Source: an uncultured Mycoplasmatota bacterium (GTDB lineage Bacteria; Bacillota_I; Bacilli_A; RF39; UBA660). From it: a stretch of 64,000 nt of DNA. Where the stretch lies: assembly GCA_900548725.1 (NCBI GenBank), contig URLV01000002.1, forward strand, positions 2,312 to 66,311, in the 5' to 3' direction. Every line of letters starts with the position of its first letter. The stretch's first letter is position 1. Under the pieces are notes generated by a model that was not told where the DNA came from, did no database searches, and saw only the letters and a list, made by a program, of their open reading frames with translations. Shown one piece after another: positions 15,511 to 23,444 of this stretch. The position numbers and the translations under genes are program-made.

Positions 15511-16269
15511 TTAAAATATAACTTTAATAATTTCACTAATAATATTCATATTTAGATAAATAATTAATAAACTACTTACCAAAAATGGTCCAAAAGGTAA
15601 CATATTATCTTTATTTTTTAAAGTAACATAAACAGCATAAGGAAAAGCTAAAAATGAAGCCAAAACTATATAAAGTATACCAAGTTTAACTCCAAGTACC
15701 ATACCAGCAACAAAAGATAATTTAATATCTCCTCCACCTAATGCTTCTTGTTTAAATGCTAATGAACCAAATAGCATTAATAAATATGCTACACCAAAAA
15801 TTATTAATCCATAAACTAATGACAATAATGCACTTACTATACCAGTATCTAACCATCTAATTATAAATATAAGTATAGCACTTACAATTAATGGACTATC
15901 ATTTATAATCATATATTTAGAATCACTTACAAATATAATTATAACTAAACTTGAAATTATTACTGCTATAAAAAATTCATAACTAATACCAAAAACTTTA
16001 TAACATAATGCAAATAAACATCCACTTAATAATTCTGTCATAAAATAAACAAATCCAATAGGAGTTTTACATTTTTTACAATGTCCTCCTAAAAATATAT
16101 AACTCAACAACGGTATATTCTCATACCATTTCAAATAATGACCACATTTTTCACAATGACTCCCAGGTTTTACTATACTTTTTTCTTCTGGAAGTCTTGT
16201 CCCTACTACTCCATAAAAGGAACCAAATATGGCTCCAATAATAAACATAAAATATAACACTAAAATCAC
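15511..16269 (-). CDS. type IV prepilin leader peptidase (A24 family, PilD/ComC-like)
   Basis: N-terminal Cys-pair zinc motif (SHCEKCGHYL...GHCKKCKTPIG), polytopic body, and GGGDIKL active-site motif. Confidence 0.8.
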   Translation of the reverse strand: MILVLYFMFIIGAIFGSFYGVVGTRLPEEKSIVKPGSHCEKCGHYLKWYENIPLLSYIFLGGHCKKCKTPIGFVYFMTELLSGCLFALCYKVFGISYEFFIAVIISSLVIIIFVSDSKYMIINDSPLIVSAILIFIIRWLDTGIVSALLSLVYGLIIFGVAYLLMLFGSLAFKQEALGGGDIKLSFVAGMVLGVKLGILYIVLASFLAFPYAVYVTLKNKDNMLPFGPFLVSSLLIIYLNMNIISEIIKVIF

Positions 16270-17895
16270 CTAACTTATTTGTCCATATAAACTAAACATT
16301 GGTATAATTACAGATAAAACTACACCACCTACAACAACTGCTAAGAATATAATCATTATTGGTTCTATTAATGATTTTAAAGAGTTAATTATATTTTTAT
16401 GTTCTTCTTGATAATATAAACTAACTTTTGCCATCATTTCAGCAAGTTCTCCAGTAGATTCACCAGTAACTATCATATAATATGCTACTTCAGGAATCGC
16501 CCAATTATCTTTAAATGATGTACTTATCTTTTCTCCTACAGCAATATTGTTAATAGTATTAAACATTATTTCTTTATATATTTCATTATTTGTAATCTTA
16601 GTTAATATTTCCATACTATCAGTAATAAATACATTATTCTTTAACAATGAAGAGAATGTCTTAGTAAATATTGTCATTTCATTATATATTATTATTTTAC
16701 CAAATAAAGGTAATTTCATTGCAAACTTCTGTAAAGCATATTTAATACTTTTAACATTAGTATATAAATAATATATAATTAAAATAATAACAACAATAAC
16801 GATTAATATATACATAATATTATTTTTCAAAAAATCACTAGCACTCATTACAAACAATGTAAGTCCATTAAGTTCAACACCAGCTGATTCATAAATTCCA
16901 CTAAATTGAGGAACTACATATAGTAAAATAAATGTTACAACAGCAATAGAAAATATCATAACAGCAGTTGGATAAGTCAATGCACTTATCATTTGTTTTC
17001 TTGTACTTTCTATTTCATTATAATATTCTGCCATATCATCAAGCGTTGCCTCTAAATCACCTGTTGCTTCAGCAGCTTTAATCATATTTATTAAAAGTGA
17101 TGGAAAAGCATTCCCTTGTTTTAATAATGCATCACTAAAACTTTCACCCATAATCAATTGATAAACAATCGCATCAAATAAACGCTTTTTATATTGGTCT
17201 CTCTTACCCATTTGCATACCAAGTATTCTCATTGCATCAGTTAAAGGTATACTAGATTTTAAATATGTAGATAATTGTGTTAACCAAAATATTAAATCTT
17301 TAGTTTTTAATTTTCTTTTAGAAAAACTTTTTTGTCCATACAATAATTCTATAAATTTATTATTTTCTAACTTAAATACTGTATATCCTTCAGATTCTAA
17401 GAAATTAAATACTTCTTGCTTAGTATAAGCAACTAAATATCCAACAACGTCATGTCCTTCACTATCTCTAGCAGTATATCTATATGTATTAGGATATTCT
17501 GTTCTAACACTATCTTGTTTATTAATTTCACTTATTAATAAATCTCTTTCTTTTAATTTTTTTTCATTTATTTTTTTATTAATTTTCTTATTTTCTTTTT
17601 TTACTTTCAAAGTACTATGACTCTTACTTGCTTCTTTTTGCTTTATTTCATTATTCTTTTTAATTTTATCATCTATAGAATCCATTTCTAAATTAACAGC
17701 TTTAATAACATCTTGCTTCTCTTTTTTATTTCTACTATTAGCATAACTTTTATATATAGAACTAGAAATTAAATTATATATAAATATAAATGGATAAACT
17801 AACGCATAAAATGTATAATAACATCCTAAACAAAAATATATAAAAGGAGATAATAATATCAAAAATATATTTTTCTTTTTTTTATTATTCTTCAT
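16270..17895 (-). CDS. type II secretion / type IV pilus platform protein (GspF/PilC family) with an extra N-terminal membrane plus Lys-rich extension
   Basis: Two T2SSF repeats (…SSIPLTDAMRILG…, …EATGDLEATLDDMAEYY…, …ESTGELAEMMAKVSLYY…). ATG at 17895 has a GAAGGAG RBS. The first ~130 aa contain two TM segments and a KKxNKK-rich segment not normally present. Confidence 0.8.
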   Translation of the reverse strand: MKNNKKKKNIFLILLSPFIYFCLGCYYTFYALVYPFIFIYNLISSSIYKSYANSRNKKEKQDVIKAVNLEMDSIDDKIKKNNEIKQKEASKSHSTLKVKKENKKINKKINEKKLKERDLLISEINKQDSVRTEYPNTYRYTARDSEGHDVVGYLVAYTKQEVFNFLESEGYTVFKLENNKFIELLYGQKSFSKRKLKTKDLIFWLTQLSTYLKSSIPLTDAMRILGMQMGKRDQYKKRLFDAIVYQLIMGESFSDALLKQGNAFPSLLINMIKAAEATGDLEATLDDMAEYYNEIESTRKQMISALTYPTAVMIFSIAVVTFILLYVVPQFSGIYESAGVELNGLTLFVMSASDFLKNNIMYILIVIVVIILIIYYLYTNVKSIKYALQKFAMKLPLFGKIIIYNEMTIFTKTFSSLLKNNVFITDSMEILTKITNNEIYKEIMFNTINNIAVGEKISTSFKDNWAIPEVAYYMIVTGESTGELAEMMAKVSLYYQEEHKNIINSLKSLIEPIMIIFLAVVVGGVVLSVIIPMFSLYGQIS

Positions 17896-17999
17896 ATTCT
17901 CTACTCCTTCTATCATTACTATAAATAGTATAACATATAATAAGTATAAAATGTAAAGTTTTTTATTAAATTTCATATAATTATATGAGTGTGATATAT

Positions 18000-18305
18000 A
18001 TGAATAATGACCCATCTACTTTAACAAAAATATTATCGGGAATAAACAATACCTTAAATATTGCTAACAAAGCAATGCCCATATACAAAGAAGCAAAGCC
18101 AATTTTTAAAACAATAAATAATACTTATAAAAATATTAAAACAAATAAAACAGATTTATCAAATATGATAAAATTAATGAAATTAAAAAATACTATAAAA
18201 AAAGATATGAATACAAATACTATATCAAATATAGAAGATAACATATCAACTACTATAACTAAAGATACTTATAATAATGTTAATAATCCTACATTCTTTA
18301 TTTAA
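18000..18305 (+). CDS. small Asn/Lys-rich protein, possibly VrrA/YqfQ-like
   Basis: The only plus-strand ORF in a 445-bp gap, ending at a bidirectional terminator. The segment INNTLNIANKAMPIYKEAKPIFKTINNTYKNIK loosely recalls YqfQ-family repeats. Weak RBS. Confidence 0.35.
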   Translation: MNNDPSTLTKILSGINNTLNIANKAMPIYKEAKPIFKTINNTYKNIKTNKTDLSNMIKLMKLKNTIKKDMNTNTISNIEDNISTTITKDTYNNVNNPTFFI

Positions 18306-18338
18306 AAAGTCTGTTATAAAAATATATAACAGACTTTT
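18305..18338. terminator. bidirectional rho-independent terminator
   Basis: AAAAGTCTGTTATA-loop-TATAACAGACTTTT with A/T runs on both sides. It sits between convergent ORFs ending at 18305 (+) and 18341 (-). Confidence 0.7.
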
Positions 18339-18340
18339 AT

Positions 18341-18784
18341 TTATTTACATTCATATTTTTTATCATTAAAATATTTTATAATATCTTTCTCATTATTCAA
18401 TTTAACAATATCTTTTATTCCATATAAATCATAATCTTTTTGATTTATTTTTTTCATATCATAATTCATATAGTATGTTAATTTTTTTTCTTCTTGCTCT
18501 ATATTAGTTATTACACCTTCATTTTTTTTAATAATATTTAAATATGCTTTAACATTATCATAATTATCGACTACTTCATCCATTGTTTTATAATTTAAAT
18601 CATACTTAATATTTAAATTTTTTATATTTTTCTTAAATACAATTTTATAAGTAATTTTATTATCATTTATCTTATTAACACATACCAATTCTCTTTCTTT
18701 ATTTAACATAAAATACAATATAATTGATACGATAATAAGAATTGATAAGAATATTATAATTATGTATTTTTTACTAGTTTTCAT
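18341..18784 (-). CDS. hypothetical N-terminally anchored small protein (last gene of the secreted-paralog operon)
   Basis: N-terminal TM segment YIIIIFLSILIIVSIILYF. Start overlaps the stop of the upstream ORF by 11 nt. Confidence 0.55.
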   Translation of the reverse strand: MKTSKKYIIIIFLSILIIVSIILYFMLNKERELVCVNKINDNKITYKIVFKKNIKNLNIKYDLNYKTMDEVVDNYDNVKAYLNIIKKNEGVITNIEQEEKKLTYYMNYDMKKINQKDYDLYGIKDIVKLNNEKDIIKYFNDKKYECK

Positions 18785-20711
18785 ATATAGTTGATGAAAT
18801 ATCAGATATTACAAAATTAGATTTTTCTTGAGATAAAGTTTCTAAATCATTAATAAATTTAGTTTCTTCTTCTGTTTTTTCTCTATTAAAGAAATAGTAA
18901 ATTTTTACATCATCTTCCCCAATATAATTTTCTAAACTTCCTGAAGTTATAATACTTATATCTTTATCTGAAATGGTAGAAATTCCAAAATTTGGACGTA
19001 AAATAACAGCAAAAACATCTGATAATTTTATTAATTCATTTTCATCTTTATATAATGTTTGAATTCCAATATTATTTTTCATTAAAGGAAAATAATTACT
19101 TTCAAAATTTACATAATATAATTTTTTAGTTCTTTCATTAAAATAAGTATTATAATATGAACTAACATTTGAATCTATTTTTATTAGTGAAACTGTATCA
19201 TCTTCATTTTTACTAAATTCAACAATTTCATTTTTTTCATAATTATAGTCAATGCTATTATTAGAATTATAACTGCTAAATGATAATTCAAAATCCACAT
19301 GTCCATTACCAGTAGTTGATAAATCCTGAATTGAAATATGAATATTACTATAATTAATTGTACCAGAAGCAATATAAATTCTTAATCTATCACTTAACTT
19401 CTCATAATAATAGTTATCACTACTTCCTCCTCTAATATTGACATTAAGAGAATCATAATCTACACCATCATTAAACTTTATATCTGTAGCAATCCATTCT
19501 TTGGCATTAAGATTTGAACCATCTATTTGATATGATACTAAATCACCAACAACATAATAATGATAATCATTATATTGCAAAGTAATTTCATTGCCTTGAG
19601 AATCATTAGCTTTACTCTCCTTAGAAATTGTTTTTAGTTCACTTATTTTTGATTGATTATTATTTTCTATACTTAATTCACTAGGTTTAACATTTGTAAC
19701 TGATAAATTATAATTACTTTTATCTTTTGGCATAATATATATATTTACAGTTTTATAAGTATTATGGTAACCATCAACTAAAACAAAATTACCACTATAT
19801 GTACTATATGTATCAGTTGAAATAAAACATCTTATTTTATTTTTACCAATATATTTAGTTTTTACATTCATATTTGAATAATTGTTTTCATAAACTTCTG
19901 GTTGTACACTATTTTCATTTAAAGTTATATCAAATACAATATATTTACCAGTTTGACCATCTACCATAAACTCTTGAAGATTATCTTTAATTTTATAATA
20001 AGAACCATTATATTCTAATTTATTTTGATTAATAAAATTTTCATCGCTTGCAAGTTCAACTGAAACTACGTCTAGTGGAACCAATTTTTTTTCATATTCG
20101 GTTACTAAAGTAAAACCATTTATACCACAGTATCCATAAAACTTTTCTGATGATTCTGACTCAACAGCAGTTTTAAAATTTACTTTAAATGTAAATTCAT
20201 ATTCATAAGGACATGTTATGGTTTCATTTGTAGTATCTACTACAACATTTTTATCATCTAATTCTATATTATAATTTTCAGCATCAGTAACATAATGAAG
20301 TAATATATCTACAGAATCATCTTCTTCACCTGTTTTTTGATATGTATTTAATAATCCCTCATTATTTTCATAATAAATATTTAAATTAGTATTTAAATTA
20401 TTTATTTCTTCCTCTGATAAGAGATTATATTTTTCTTCACTTTCATTATAAACATATATTATATTATCATTAACATAATAATAAATATAAATATTCGTAT
20501 CACCAATATTATTTCTTGTAAATAATGCTCCTGCTTTACTTGCTCTAGCAGCACTTATCCATGTATCTTCATGAAATACAGTATTTCCAATTACAATATC
20601 TCCTTTAGTTAAAATAGAACTTGAAGCTGCATTTGTAATCATACCAAAAGCAAAGAACATTATAAACATTATTAATATTTTTTCTATTTTATTATTCATT
20701 ACACTTTTCAC
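18774..20711 (-). CDS. secreted protein, paralog family member (645 aa)
   Basis: Signal peptide. The N-terminal ~300 aa are collinear with the 409-aa neighbour (GDIVIGNTVFHEDTWISAARASKAGALFT, TCPYEYEFTF, KYIVFDITLNEN). Confidence 0.6.
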   Translation of the reverse strand: MKSVMNNKIEKILIMFIMFFAFGMITNAASSSILTKGDIVIGNTVFHEDTWISAARASKAGALFTRNNIGDTNIYIYYYVNDNIIYVYNESEEKYNLLSEEEINNLNTNLNIYYENNEGLLNTYQKTGEEDDSVDILLHYVTDAENYNIELDDKNVVVDTTNETITCPYEYEFTFKVNFKTAVESESSEKFYGYCGINGFTLVTEYEKKLVPLDVVSVELASDENFINQNKLEYNGSYYKIKDNLQEFMVDGQTGKYIVFDITLNENSVQPEVYENNYSNMNVKTKYIGKNKIRCFISTDTYSTYSGNFVLVDGYHNTYKTVNIYIMPKDKSNYNLSVTNVKPSELSIENNNQSKISELKTISKESKANDSQGNEITLQYNDYHYYVVGDLVSYQIDGSNLNAKEWIATDIKFNDGVDYDSLNVNIRGGSSDNYYYEKLSDRLRIYIASGTINYSNIHISIQDLSTTGNGHVDFELSFSSYNSNNSIDYNYEKNEIVEFSKNEDDTVSLIKIDSNVSSYYNTYFNERTKKLYYVNFESNYFPLMKNNIGIQTLYKDENELIKLSDVFAVILRPNFGISTISDKDISIITSGSLENYIGEDDVKIYYFFNREKTEEETKFINDLETLSQEKSNFVISDISSTIYEN

Positions 20712-21937
20712 TCCTCTTTACTAATATTTGTTATGTCTAAAACAACATCACTTAATAATAATTTACCTGTTTCAGGCACATAAATTCTTTCTTCATAATT
20801 TGTATCTTTATATTTTATAGTAGCATAACCATCTATTTTAATTCCGTCTTTATCATATAAAAATAATCGTTGTTTTCCAGCGGTATCTTTCTCAGAATCC
20901 CATTCATAATAATATGTATTATCTTTTCTATCATCTATATCAATATATAAATCTTTATAATTTTGTCTATAATTATCTAATATAACAAAGTGATATGTAT
21001 TTAAAATTGTAGATTTAATTGGAACATATATTCTAACCGTATTATTATCTATATTTCTACTGACAACTTTAAGTTTATTATTACTTTCTTTATTTAAAAA
21101 ACTATAATGATAAATATTGTTGTTTTCATCAAATTTTATATCAAACATTACATATTTATTTTCATCTAGTGATAATCCTAGATCTTCATCAATGATATCA
21201 AATGTTTCCAACTCTTCATTTACTTTATAAGTATAATAAAAATTTTCTACACTATTTTTTAAAGATATTTTTGACTGATTAGGATAATTTACATTTGATA
21301 TCTGAACATTATTTATTTTTATATCTATCAAATTATGTAAATCTTTTTCTTCAAAAACAATATCATCCTGAGAACAACGTCCCACATAATCAATGCTAGT
21401 ATTATCAGCATATAATAAACTAAATTCAAATTCGTAATCAAATGGACATGTAACTGTGTTATCTGATTTATCAAATATTATATTTGAATCATTTATAATA
21501 AAAGTACTGTCTTCTGAATTATATAAATTAAGTAAAAAAGATAATTCAGTTGGCACTCCTAATTCATTTTTTAGTTTGTCATACTTAATATTAATTGGAT
21601 TATTATTTTCATAAAAAATTTTCAAATTATTTTCTAATTCATCTAATTCGTAATCTTCTAATTTACGATATTGACCATCATCATCCAATTCATACCACAA
21701 GTTAGTAGTAATAACTTTATAGGTTTTTACATCTATACTAGATGTGTTTTTAGTAAATAAAGCACCAGCTTTACCAGCTCTCGTAGCACTAATCCACGTA
21801 CCACTTCTAAAAGCAGTATTACCAATTATTATATCTCCATTCTTTACATTATCATAAATTCCTTGTGCATCAACAAATGAAATAAATGAAAATGAAATAA
21901 TAAATGAAAATATTAATTTTATTATTTTATTCTTCAT
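20708..21937 (-). CDS. secreted protein, paralog family member (409 aa)
   Basis: Signal peptide ...SFVDA. Shares its N-terminal module with the 645-aa ORF and its C-terminal ~65-aa module with the 305-aa ORF. Confidence 0.6.
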   Translation of the reverse strand: MKNKIIKLIFSFIISFSFISFVDAQGIYDNVKNGDIIIGNTAFRSGTWISATRAGKAGALFTKNTSSIDVKTYKVITTNLWYELDDDGQYRKLEDYELDELENNLKIFYENNNPINIKYDKLKNELGVPTELSFLLNLYNSEDSTFIINDSNIIFDKSDNTVTCPFDYEFEFSLLYADNTSIDYVGRCSQDDIVFEEKDLHNLIDIKINNVQISNVNYPNQSKISLKNSVENFYYTYKVNEELETFDIIDEDLGLSLDENKYVMFDIKFDENNNIYHYSFLNKESNNKLKVVSRNIDNNTVRIYVPIKSTILNTYHFVILDNYRQNYKDLYIDIDDRKDNTYYYEWDSEKDTAGKQRLFLYDKDGIKIDGYATIKYKDTNYEERIYVPETGKLLLSDVVLDITNISKEE

Positions 21938-21950
21938 TAAACTTCCCTTC

Positions 21951-22868
21951 TTAATTTCCTTTTACATTGCTAATTGTAACAATATCTTTAATAAGTAAAA
22001 TTCCATTTGTAGTAACATTCATTGTTTCACTATAATCAGAACCTTTATAACTTACTAAAACACTTCCTGAAACTTTAGTTCCACTTTCATCAACAATATA
22101 TAAATATTGTTGTCCTGCTGCATCTTTATCATTGCCCCAAACAACATTATAAGTTTTAACCTTTTTTGTTGTCGTTGTAGTTGTCGTAGTTTCTTGAGGT
22201 TTTTTAGTTGTTGTAGGTTCTTGTTTTTTTGTTGTTTCCTGTTTTTTAGTAGTTGATTCTTGCTTTTTAATAGTTTCTTGTTGTTTTACTGTAGTAGTAT
22301 TAGAACCATTCTTTTTAGTAGTCTGTTGTTTTATTGTAGTAGTACTAGTTGTTGTTGTATTCTCTTCTTTTGTAGCAACTATAGCATATCTACTTAAATG
22401 ATTTACATAAAAAATTATATTTCCATTATTATAAGTAGCATTTATAGTTTCTTTTACTTCATTATTATCTAAATATAATACTTTAAAATTATTATAATTA
22501 AATGAATTATCAAAAGGAATTCTTATCTTAAGTTTAGTATTATCTACATTGACTAAATTATTATTTTTATCAACAATATTTATATCATAAACAGAAATCA
22601 AATTTTCAATATCTATTTTATCATTTACTCTACTAACTACTAATTTATTTGTATCTTTTATTTCACTAGAATCACTATAATTAATAATAATACCAGTACT
22701 ACTATCTTTCAAAATGTTTTCTTTTTTTATTGAAGTAGTTGTAGTAGACATTTTATTATTATCATTCCTTTTTAAACTATTTCCAAGTACAAATATTAGA
22801 AAAAATATTAATAATAATATACATACAATTAATCCTATAACAACATATTTCTTTTTATTATTTTCCAC
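21951..22868 (-). CDS. membrane-anchored/secreted protein with Thr/Lys/Gln-rich linker (first gene of the operon)
   Basis: GTG start with an AAAGGAG RBS. N-terminal TM segment, (T)nKKQE-type low-complexity linker, and a C-terminal module YNVVWGNDKDAAGQQYLYIVDESGTKVSG... shared with the 409-aa ORF. Confidence 0.6.
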   Translation of the reverse strand: MENNKKKYVVIGLIVCILLLIFFLIFVLGNSLKRNDNNKMSTTTTSIKKENILKDSSTGIIINYSDSSEIKDTNKLVVSRVNDKIDIENLISVYDINIVDKNNNLVNVDNTKLKIRIPFDNSFNYNNFKVLYLDNNEVKETINATYNNGNIIFYVNHLSRYAIVATKEENTTTTSTTTIKQQTTKKNGSNTTTVKQQETIKKQESTTKKQETTKKQEPTTTKKPQETTTTTTTTKKVKTYNVVWGNDKDAAGQQYLYIVDESGTKVSGSVLVSYKGSDYSETMNVTTNGILLIKDIVTISNVKGN

Positions 22869-22894
22869 TATTTTTGCTCCTTTCTACAACGAAA

Positions 22895-22959
22895 AAATTA
22901 TATCTTTTTTTATACCCCCCCCCCCGACTGCTTTTCGAGGCGGAGAGAAGATATAATTT
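22895..22959. repeat. 12-bp perfect inverted repeat AAATTATATCTT / AAGATATAATTT (22895-22906 and 22948-22959) bracketing a 41-bp GC-rich core
   Basis: Read directly. Each arm presents a GATATAAT (-10-like) box pointing outward. Confidence 0.8.
22915..22925. repeat. homopolymeric C11 (G11 on the coding strand) tract in the promoter region of the secreted-paralog operon
   Basis: Eleven consecutive C counted at 22915-22925, 47-57 nt upstream of the GTG at 22868 and 12 nt upstream of the TATAAT at 22897-22902 (minus). Confidence 0.9.
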
Positions 22960-23087
22960 CATTAATTTTTTCATTAGTTTTTAATTTTTTTGTTAATTCA
23001 AAAATATAAAATTAAATAATATTAGTAAATCAACATTAGAGCATTACTACTCTAAATAAATTATAGTATATTAAAAATAATTTGTAA

Positions 23088-23120
23088 AGAAAAAGATTAG
23101 AACTAAACTAATTCTAATCT
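23088..23120 (-). terminator. terminator of the alpha operon (after rplQ)
   Basis: AGATTAGAA-9 nt-TTCTAATCT hairpin overlapping the rplQ stop, followed on the minus strand by TTTTTCTTT. Confidence 0.5.
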
Positions 23121-23444
23121 TACCATTAAAGCATCGTCTCCGATTCTTTCTTTTAATTTTATAATACGAGTATATCCACCATTACGGTCAGCATACTTAG
23201 GTGCTAATTCATTAAATACTTTACTAACAACAGCTTTATCATTATGTAAGAAAGCTAAAGCTTGTCTACGACTTACTAAAGTACCTTTTTTTCCATAAGT
23301 AATCATTTTATCAATGAACTTACGTGCTTCTTTAGCTCTTGCTTCAGTAGTTACTACATATCCGTTAGTTATAACATCTTTAGTAATACCAGCTAATATG
23401 CTTCTTCTAATACGTGATTCTCTTCCTAATTTTCTGTATGACAT
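23103..23444 (-). CDS. rplQ: 50S ribosomal protein L17
   Basis: [17 protein letters not shown]... follows rpoA in the canonical position. Confidence 0.95.

Follow-up and report, generated by a model that had tools for sequence, protein, structure and literature searches.

A guanine homopolymer upstream of a surface-protein operon in uncultured gut Bacilli is most likely one strand of a conserved leader RNA hairpin

In a 64,000-nt window from an uncultured Mycoplasmatota bacterium (contig URLV01000002.1), a run of eleven C residues, read as G11 on the coding strand, precedes an operon of four secreted or surface-protein genes. The original prediction took this tract for a phase-variation switch lodged in a promoter. 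By comparing the window with related loci (denoted here by L numbers), we find that G11 most likely forms one side of a conserved RNA hairpin within the transcribed operon leader, and not the spacer of a promoter. The RNA hairpin, its strand specificity, its conservation and covariation, a promoter upstream of it and the length polymorphism of the tract are all well supported in silico. We infer that transcription would terminate at the U tract behind the hairpin and that expression would depend on tract length. Taken whole, the proposal of a terminator-like leader attenuator with a slippage-prone G tract in its upper helix, giving graded heritable variation, strikes us as an even bet on present comparative evidence. 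By class, the leader module would be a repeat modulator of the 5′ untranslated region (UTR), akin to uspA1 and to tlpB/RepG, and would define a family of RNA motifs, so far undescribed, in uncultured gut Bacilli.

All statements about the sequence in the original prediction proved correct when the C11 run, the hexamers, the inverted repeat and the distances were re-read in the window (Table 1). At a G+C content of 26%, the window contains no other C or G run of at least 7 nt in its 64 kb, and the number of C11 runs expected by chance is ~3e-4. Across ~100 kb of related low-GC loci, G/C runs of at least 6 nt occur solely as copies of the tract element. The tract lies 47-57 nt from the GTG (22868) of the 305-aa open reading frame (ORF), and it is framed by a 12-nt inverted repeat, AAATTATATCTT at 22895-22906 with its exact complement AAGATATAATTT at 22948-22959. 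Because 57 inverted pairs (12-nt seed, within 60 nt) can be counted in the window, an AT-only repeat of this length is weak evidence alone; it is conservation across lineages that makes this one meaningful. On the minus strand, TATAAT (22902-22897) lies 12 nt off the tract, TATAAA (22914-22909) adjoins it directly, and TCGAAA (22938-22933) lies 18 nt upstream of TATAAA.

On the RNA, the two halves of the repeat pair as the lower stem of a hairpin whose upper stem consists of the G run and a C/U-rich arm. The window hairpin has a predicted stability of −30.2 kcal/mol (z = −5.35), and the hairpins of the module as a whole range from −22 to −34 kcal/mol. A single minimum free energy (MFE) fold is shared by 9/9 representatives, with an AU lower stem of 10-14 bp, a 3′-side bulge, an upper stem of C/U arm and G run whose top is locked by GA/UC pairs, and a variable loop. 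Directly after the stem there is a U6-8 tract in all copies, among them those of all six lineages found via protein homology. The sense RNA is more stable than the antisense in each of nine sequences, by 3-16 kcal/mol, because many of the pairs are G·U. In the consensus structure 92% of cells are paired, compared with 58-72% when the partners are slid. Compensatory double changes are found at three lower-stem pairs, the innermost ones (CUU/AAG in the window), and seven upper-stem pairs show a C to U change opposite G. In L044 the right arm reads TATAGT, so that pairing there is kept only as G·U. The spacing between the arms varies from 34 to 52 nt among lineages, which suits a hairpin with a variable top and not a protein bridging two DNA half-sites. 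The original prediction had seen in the inverted repeat a pair of outward-facing promoters; it is better read as an RNA stem in the transcribed leader.

The length of the tract matches that of its partner. We varied the number of Gs in silico and read off where predicted stability saturates. Saturation and observed number coincide at 11 in the window, L044 and L020, at 9 in L029, and at 12 in L041, the C/U arm of which has one extra C; they are 9 and 8 in L035, and 12 and 11 in both L013 and L016. Each G below saturation costs ~1-3 kcal/mol, while Gs beyond it add nothing. Tract length thus follows the partner arm, an argument for selection of the run as a strand of the helix, and the saturation behaviour predicts that a one-G change acts in a graded manner and not as an ON/OFF switch. 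A search of Rfam 15 gave archaeal sRNA41 as the best match, scoring 27 bits where the threshold is 45 (E 0.019), and five other loci gave none. A role of the C/U arm as an anti-Shine-Dalgarno (anti-SD) sequence titrated by the G run was rejected: SD accessibility in the window is flat (0.77-0.86 over G4-G14), an effect is seen in L041 only, plus noisily in L013, and the SD of L020 and L035 lies over 100 nt off.

Seven lineages of low-GC gut Bacilli, all uncultured, share this leader architecture. Four of these carry it at the rplQ locus (window, L044, L013, L016) and three at TasA/camelysin-like genes (L020/L025/L041, L029/L035, L064). From 5′ to 3′, the module comprises a sigma-A promoter (P1), a 5′ stem-loop, an A-rich linker, the AU lower stem, the C/U-rich arm paired to the G run, and U6-8. 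Homologues of the 305-aa protein (gene 1) are preceded by the module, each time with G11, in L044 (65% amino acid identity), L013 (53%) and L016 (46%), and stand without it in L017 and L046. A pattern scan of metagenome contigs yielded five further module loci, with G10, G11, G12, G9 and G8; three of the five reach a downstream gene, encoding a protein of 630-710 aa with a TasA/camelysin-type N-terminus (PF12389, E 1e-7), and the remaining two contigs end just beyond the element. The Hadza contig L064 carries four tandem TasA-like paralogues, of which one has a full module with G11, one a degenerate tract (GGGAGGGG) and two no module, and the module is absent from the other TasA-like homologues (L054-L063). 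A covariance model of 12 copies, run on the window and 219 kb of related loci, found zero additional copies, and a scan of viral contigs returned unrelated matches only. In every case the element stands in front of secreted or surface-protein genes, the context in which it had originally been placed.

Two of these loci have further features of their own. The tract-less 305-aa homologue of L017 (L017:3516-3808) lies behind a C39-peptidase ATP-binding cassette (ABC) transporter and two ORFs (48 and 49 aa), a setting that resembles bacteriocin export, and has an AU-only hairpin directly before its ribosome-binding site (RBS). In L041 (2299-2541, minus strand), a TTG at the tract start opens, with G12, a frame that continues in phase into the downstream TasA-like gene, probably by chance.

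P1 is the best promoter match of its region in the window, ~135 nt upstream of the tract. A canonical sigma-A promoter stands 80-135 nt ahead of the tract in each lineage, with TTGxAA or TTTACA as −35 and a spacer of exactly 17 nt, and the −10 box of this promoter is TGn-extended in most lineages. The module-less paralogues (L054-L063; L064 genes 2 and 4) have a P1-type promoter ~27 nt before the ATG. Because these paralogues use the same promoter, we take P1 to be the promoter of the module-bearing genes too, and the stem-loop, linker and G-tract hairpin to be an optional insert in the transcribed leader. The 5′ stem-loop occurs in all module-bearing loci and in none of the module-less paralogues; it starts 5-9 nt after the −10 box, and its arms differ in sequence by lineage with complementarity retained. 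P1, the 5′ stem-loop and the hairpin-less paralogues together predict that the tract most likely sits in the transcribed leader.

Within the linker, a AAAAATTCTATT motif is conserved 10-20 nt before the hairpin in L013, L016, L020, L025 and L064. It resembles the left arm of the hairpin, AAAAATTATAT, and could be an alternative pairing partner of the right arm; the window carries CTAATGAAAAAA at this place. At L020, L025, L041, L054, L061 and L064, the promoters of the TasA-like genes are nested in the terminator of the preceding gene, such that the −35 TTGAAA falls in the loop or the 3′ arm of the terminator, whose T run gives the TGn-extended −10 context. This compact terminator-promoter unit is recurrent at many loci.

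Tract length differs both between strains and between copies, the polymorphism for which the original prediction had proposed to look. In the window lineage it is G11 in six contigs (window, L002, L003, L006, L049, L050) and G10 in two (L007, L008), and these strains are near-identical: the window and L008 align over 6343 bases with 0 mismatches and a single gap, which is the tract itself (G11 vs. G10). Over paralogous and orthologous copies the range is G8 to G12, with paralogues of G10, G11 and G12 in one metagenome and two other paralogues with G8 and G9. The homopolymer is pure G in 11 of 12 module copies. The tract or its immediate flank is also where several contigs start or end (L012/L048, L014, L015, L025, L050), as is expected from disagreeing reads and equally from homopolymer sequencing error. 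Two nearby poly-A runs likewise vary by one base among strains (L003, L007). The run between SD and GTG (22871-22875) is A5 or A6, a difference that alters the SD-to-start spacing, and the run in the hairpin bulge (22907-22913) is A7 or A6.

These features suggest how the module may work. The operon mRNA would begin at P1, and its leader would carry the 5′ stem-loop, the linker, the long hairpin and U6-8. A long hairpin followed by U6-8 has, between P1 and the RBS, the layout of an intrinsic terminator, and as such it may limit how much transcription enters the secreted-protein genes. Being a pure homopolymer of 8-12 Gs, the run would slip during replication; a lost G would lower the stability of the hairpin and shift the junction between its two stems. 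Slippage could then produce heritable, reversible, rheostat-like differences in read-through between cells, and is our candidate for the way in which termination is bypassed. With the C/U partner provided in cis, an sRNA (small RNA) partner acting in trans, of which none is known, is unnecessary, though one may exist. Of the phase-variable operon originally predicted, what stands is a conserved, length-polymorphic tract before surface-protein genes, and what finds no support is the promoter-spacer mechanism.

Several points weigh against a length-dependent attenuator. The tract of L064 gene 1 is degenerate, so a homopolymer is evidently not indispensable to the module. Whichever tract length from 4 to 16 is modelled, the lower stem still forms at equilibrium, and the predicted effect of one G is modest. 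G11 is the modal length in five of seven lineages, and a tract that follows its partner arm fits plain structural selection without switching. One-base differences (G10/G11) between Illumina assemblies, like contig breaks at G runs, may have technical causes. A simple terminator scan makes no call here, because the hairpin is long and the lower stem, beside the U tract, is AU-only at its base; ordinary terminators of these genomes are short hairpins of 6-10 bp. We identified neither an antiterminator structure nor an antiterminator factor at the leader. The ATG is ~125 nt away from the module in L020 and L035, and the intervening sequence could accommodate other promoters.

Much of this would also be accounted for by a leader structure that is constitutive (an mRNA stabiliser, a processing site, an insulating terminator or a protein-binding site), with length differences that are neutral or technical and no regulatory role, the chief alternative, which we consider possible though rather unlikely. 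The G run would then be the cheapest partner of a pyrimidine arm, G pairing with both C and U. Such a structure fits a tract matched to its C/U arm and most often 11 long, a predicted stability that shifts little per G, a lower stem kept at all lengths, the non-homopolymeric copy in L064, the AU-only hairpin just before the RBS in tract-less L017, and Illumina assemblies that are unreliable by one base at G10-11. It does not readily explain why nearly all copies are pure G, although G-to-A changes opposite many of the Us would strengthen the stem, nor why the module tracts are the sole G/C runs of at least 6 nt in ~160 kb of sequence of 23-26% G+C. It is also at odds with G10, G11 and G12 paralogues within one metagenome, with G8 and G9 in two others, and with the presence of the module at a subset of surface-protein paralogues only, which is the usual pattern of contingency loci. 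The promoter-spacer mechanism, in which slippage alters promoter geometry as in porA, opc and vlp, seems improbable. In one form the promoter is TCGAAA-18-TATAAA, the hexamers of which are present in the window; in L044, the nearest lineage, the tract is again G11 but the loop is 3 nt shorter, leaving TCGCAA 15 nt from TATAAA, and the other lineages have no −35-like hexamer at all. In the other form, a promoter P2 uses the right-arm TATAAT as its −10. This box is unchanged in every copy except one and has a purine 7-9 nt downstream, and tract-less L046 carries, equally far from its RBS, a TGnTATAAT promoter. In L020/L025/L041 the tract is moreover flanked by TTG, so that G11 gives TTGGGG-17-TATAAT and G10 and G12 give spacers of 16 and 18. 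The TTG anchor is confined to the L020 lineage, however, TATAAT lies 18-23 nt from the tract's 5′ end depending on the lineage, and no TGn precedes the right-arm box; P2 was rejected as the explanation on these grounds and kept as a minor rival. Either form leaves unexplained the length-matched C/U arm, the G·U strand asymmetry and the conserved P1 and 5′ stem-loop, and comparative evidence indicates that the tract does not lie between a functional −35 and −10.

Attenuation through a leader peptide, with a small ORF running through the tract so that the number of Gs would fix the stopping point of the ribosome with respect to the terminator, has a precedent in Streptococcus gallolyticus pil1 (PMC3894217). 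In the window an ATG ORF (MKKLMKLYLLSASKSSRGGGYKK...) does cross the tract, ending just past the GTG of gene 1 with G11 and within or shortly after the 3′ arm of the hairpin with G10, depending on the local poly-A length; with G12 it would end right after the tract. This ORF has no SD before its ATG and occurs only in the window, L007 and L044 lineages, in another frame in L044, being absent from L013, L016 and L020; it is thus disfavoured, and we regard such a peptide as very improbable. Least probable of all, to the point of being barely credible, are an inverton bounded by the 12-bp inverted repeats and an assembly or sequencing artefact. Inverted repeats do flank the segment, and poly-G is a familiar artefact of two-colour Illumina chemistry. 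Yet ~25/25 independent contigs agree in orientation, the Gs always being on the gene strand, the internal segment is just 34-52 bp, and no recombinase gene lies nearby, for which reasons the inverton was rejected. Against an artefact speak the unique sequence that flanks the tract on either side, in assemblies that come from many studies and platforms, and the conservation of the tract between diverged lineages.

The genes behind the leader (Table 1) encode proteins of 305, 409, 645 and 147 aa. They are close-packed, and all four products begin with a signal or anchor segment, which makes "secreted/surface-protein operon" a fair label. The domain layout of gene 1 in Table 1 is that of an AlphaFold model. 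The products of genes 1-4 had no match in Pfam, NCBIfam or PDB sequences, and the gene 1 model had no significant Foldseek match. A GTDB genome scan found one relative, 28% identical, in a metagenome-assembled genome (MAG) named "uncultured Bacilli bacterium" (L018). Exact-protein look-ups found the locus in human-gut metagenome assemblies from the Hadza and other cohorts. Promoter, leader and operon together form a block of ~4.8 kb (window 18309-23080) that starts exactly at the promoter-like site. We call it a variable island because strains with identical ribosomal protein L17, the rplQ product, lack it or hold variants of it. L001, L004, L005 and L009 have an identical L17 and no island, rplQ being followed by a small reverse ORF and pilC, and these strains match the window only down to 23081. 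Alternative cassettes encode 305/506/147 aa (L002, L003, L049) or 307/660/152 aa (L013). No target-site duplication is evident at the island ends, and both junctions lie inside terminator T runs.

Around the island, L013 has a 286-aa ORF (L013:2919-3779) between rplQ and the leader module that looks, by eye, like Rpn/PD-(D/E)XK transposase-like proteins. On the other side, a conserved small plus-strand ORF (window 17985-18305), which has 106 aa here and 95-101 aa in other strains and belongs to no family, lies between the island and two minus-strand genes (15511-18015), one for PilC/T2SS-F and one for a prepilin peptidase. The latter two genes suggest a type IV pilus or competence pseudopilus locus beside the ribosomal protein cluster. 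GC skew is negative throughout the window (1-64000), and 44 of the 48 ORFs of at least 150 aa are on the minus strand, which fits a leading-strand ribosomal-protein region read in reverse. Related contigs (L010, L061, L064) carry the sporulation genes CotE, GerA, YabP and YqfD, from which we conclude that this gut lineage of ~25% G+C is probably an endospore former.

Table 1. Features of the leader module, the operon and its borders in the window
Feature	Position	Strand	Remark
rplQ (L17)	23103-23444	(-)	
rplQ terminator hairpin, AAGATTAGAA/TTCTAATCTT then T run	23093..23121	(-)	upstream limit of variable island
Promoter P1: TTTACA (23088-23083), 17-nt spacer, TATAAT (23065-23060)	23060..23088	(-)	promoter scan 11 of 12
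5′ stem-loop, TTAGAG-TAGTAATG-CTCTAA	23036..23055	(-)	starts 5 nt past the -10 box
A/U-rich linker, variable length	22960..23035	(-)	TTCTATT motif here in other lineages
5′ arm of lower AU stem, AAAUUAUAUCUU on RNA	22948..22959	(-)	exact complement of 22895-22906
C/U-rich arm CUCUCCGCCUC plus GA	22935..22947	(-)	pairs with G run and preceding UC; MFE folds
Apical loop AAAGCAG	22928..22934	(-)	differs between strains and lineages
G11 tract (C11 on + strand)	22915-22925	(-)	3′ strand of upper helix; length-polymorphic
8-nt 3′-side bulge UAUAAAAA	22907..22914	(-)	holds TATAAA of the original prediction
3′ arm of lower stem AAGAUAUAAUUU into U6 tract (22897-22892)	22892..22906	(-)	holds TATAAT
Shine-Dalgarno AAAGGAG of 305-aa gene	22877..22883	(-)	conserved as AGAAAGGAG in homologous loci
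Gene 1, 305 aa	21951..22868	(-)	N-terminal transmembrane (TM) anchor, beta-sandwich, Thr-rich disordered stalk, small C-terminal beta domain
Gene 2, 409 aa	20708..21937	(-)	Sec signal peptide; no known family; paralogue of gene 3
Gene 3, 645 aa	18774..20711	(-)	Sec signal peptide; no known family
Gene 4, 147 aa	18341..18784	(-)	N-terminal membrane anchor
Terminator hairpin, 14-nt perfect arms	18305..18338	(-)	end of operon and island

The known cases of phase variation in gut commensals mostly involve invertible promoters, and those of repeat-based switches mostly come from Gram-negative pathogens. If the attenuator proposal is right, abundant uncultured Gram-positive gut bacteria would vary their secreted and surface proteins via a repeat built into an RNA hairpin, by a mechanism between the G-repeat/sRNA system of Helicobacter pylori and terminator-based attenuation. 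The module would be a new structured RNA motif for annotation, the distribution of tract lengths would be a marker readable from metagenomic reads with which to follow surface variation in vivo, and the breaks of these genome assemblies at the tract would be explained. More speculatively, and at less than even odds, this could be an undescribed class of cis-regulatory leader, with a hypermutable G homopolymer as a strand of a terminator helix, in which the module would have been installed independently at several paralogous surface-protein genes and would give combinatorial, graded variation without a change of promoter or coding frame.

Among known systems, N. meningitidis porA and opc, Mycoplasma hyorhinis vlp and Bordetella fim have a homopolymer between −35 and −10, or between an activator site and −10. 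The likeness lies in a slippage-prone homopolymer upstream of surface-protein genes and in paralogues that each have their own tract; the spacer geometry is not conserved here, however, and the conserved promoter is 80-135 nt upstream. With the intrinsic terminators and attenuators of Firmicutes the module shares a stable hairpin and U6-8 between promoter and RBS, with an A tract on the 5′ side. Unlike ordinary terminators, it is far longer and composite (AU lower stem, bulge of 4-8 nt, G:C/U upper stem), and no antiterminator or ligand domain was found. For Moraxella catarrhalis uspA1, Lafontaine et al. (2001) reportedly placed the tract downstream of the transcription start. There, a poly-G of 8-12 upstream of the adhesin ORF is accompanied by graded mRNA levels, low at G8-10 and high at G11-12 in strain 195ME (PMC7302503). 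No complementary C/U arm, hairpin or U tract is described for uspA1, the mechanism of which is unresolved, and it is a single locus where the module is a family. In S. gallolyticus pil1, a leader repeat between the promoter and a surface-structure operon acts via a premature stem-loop terminator (PMC3894217), and the likeness would lie in a Firmicute leader repeat combined with a terminator before surface-structure genes. In pil1 the length is set by a translated leader peptide with GCAGA repeats; the module has no conserved leader ORF or RBS, and its repeat is itself a strand of the hairpin. The closest case is the tlpB-hp0102 leader of H. pylori, with a G-repeat targeted by the sRNA RepG (PMC8295292). 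The host here is instead a low-GC Gram-positive gut bacterium. In both, a G-repeat pairs with a C/U-rich RNA segment; in the present module, the predicted C/U partner lies in cis, immediately upstream in the leader, and the duplex itself would be the terminator-like hairpin.

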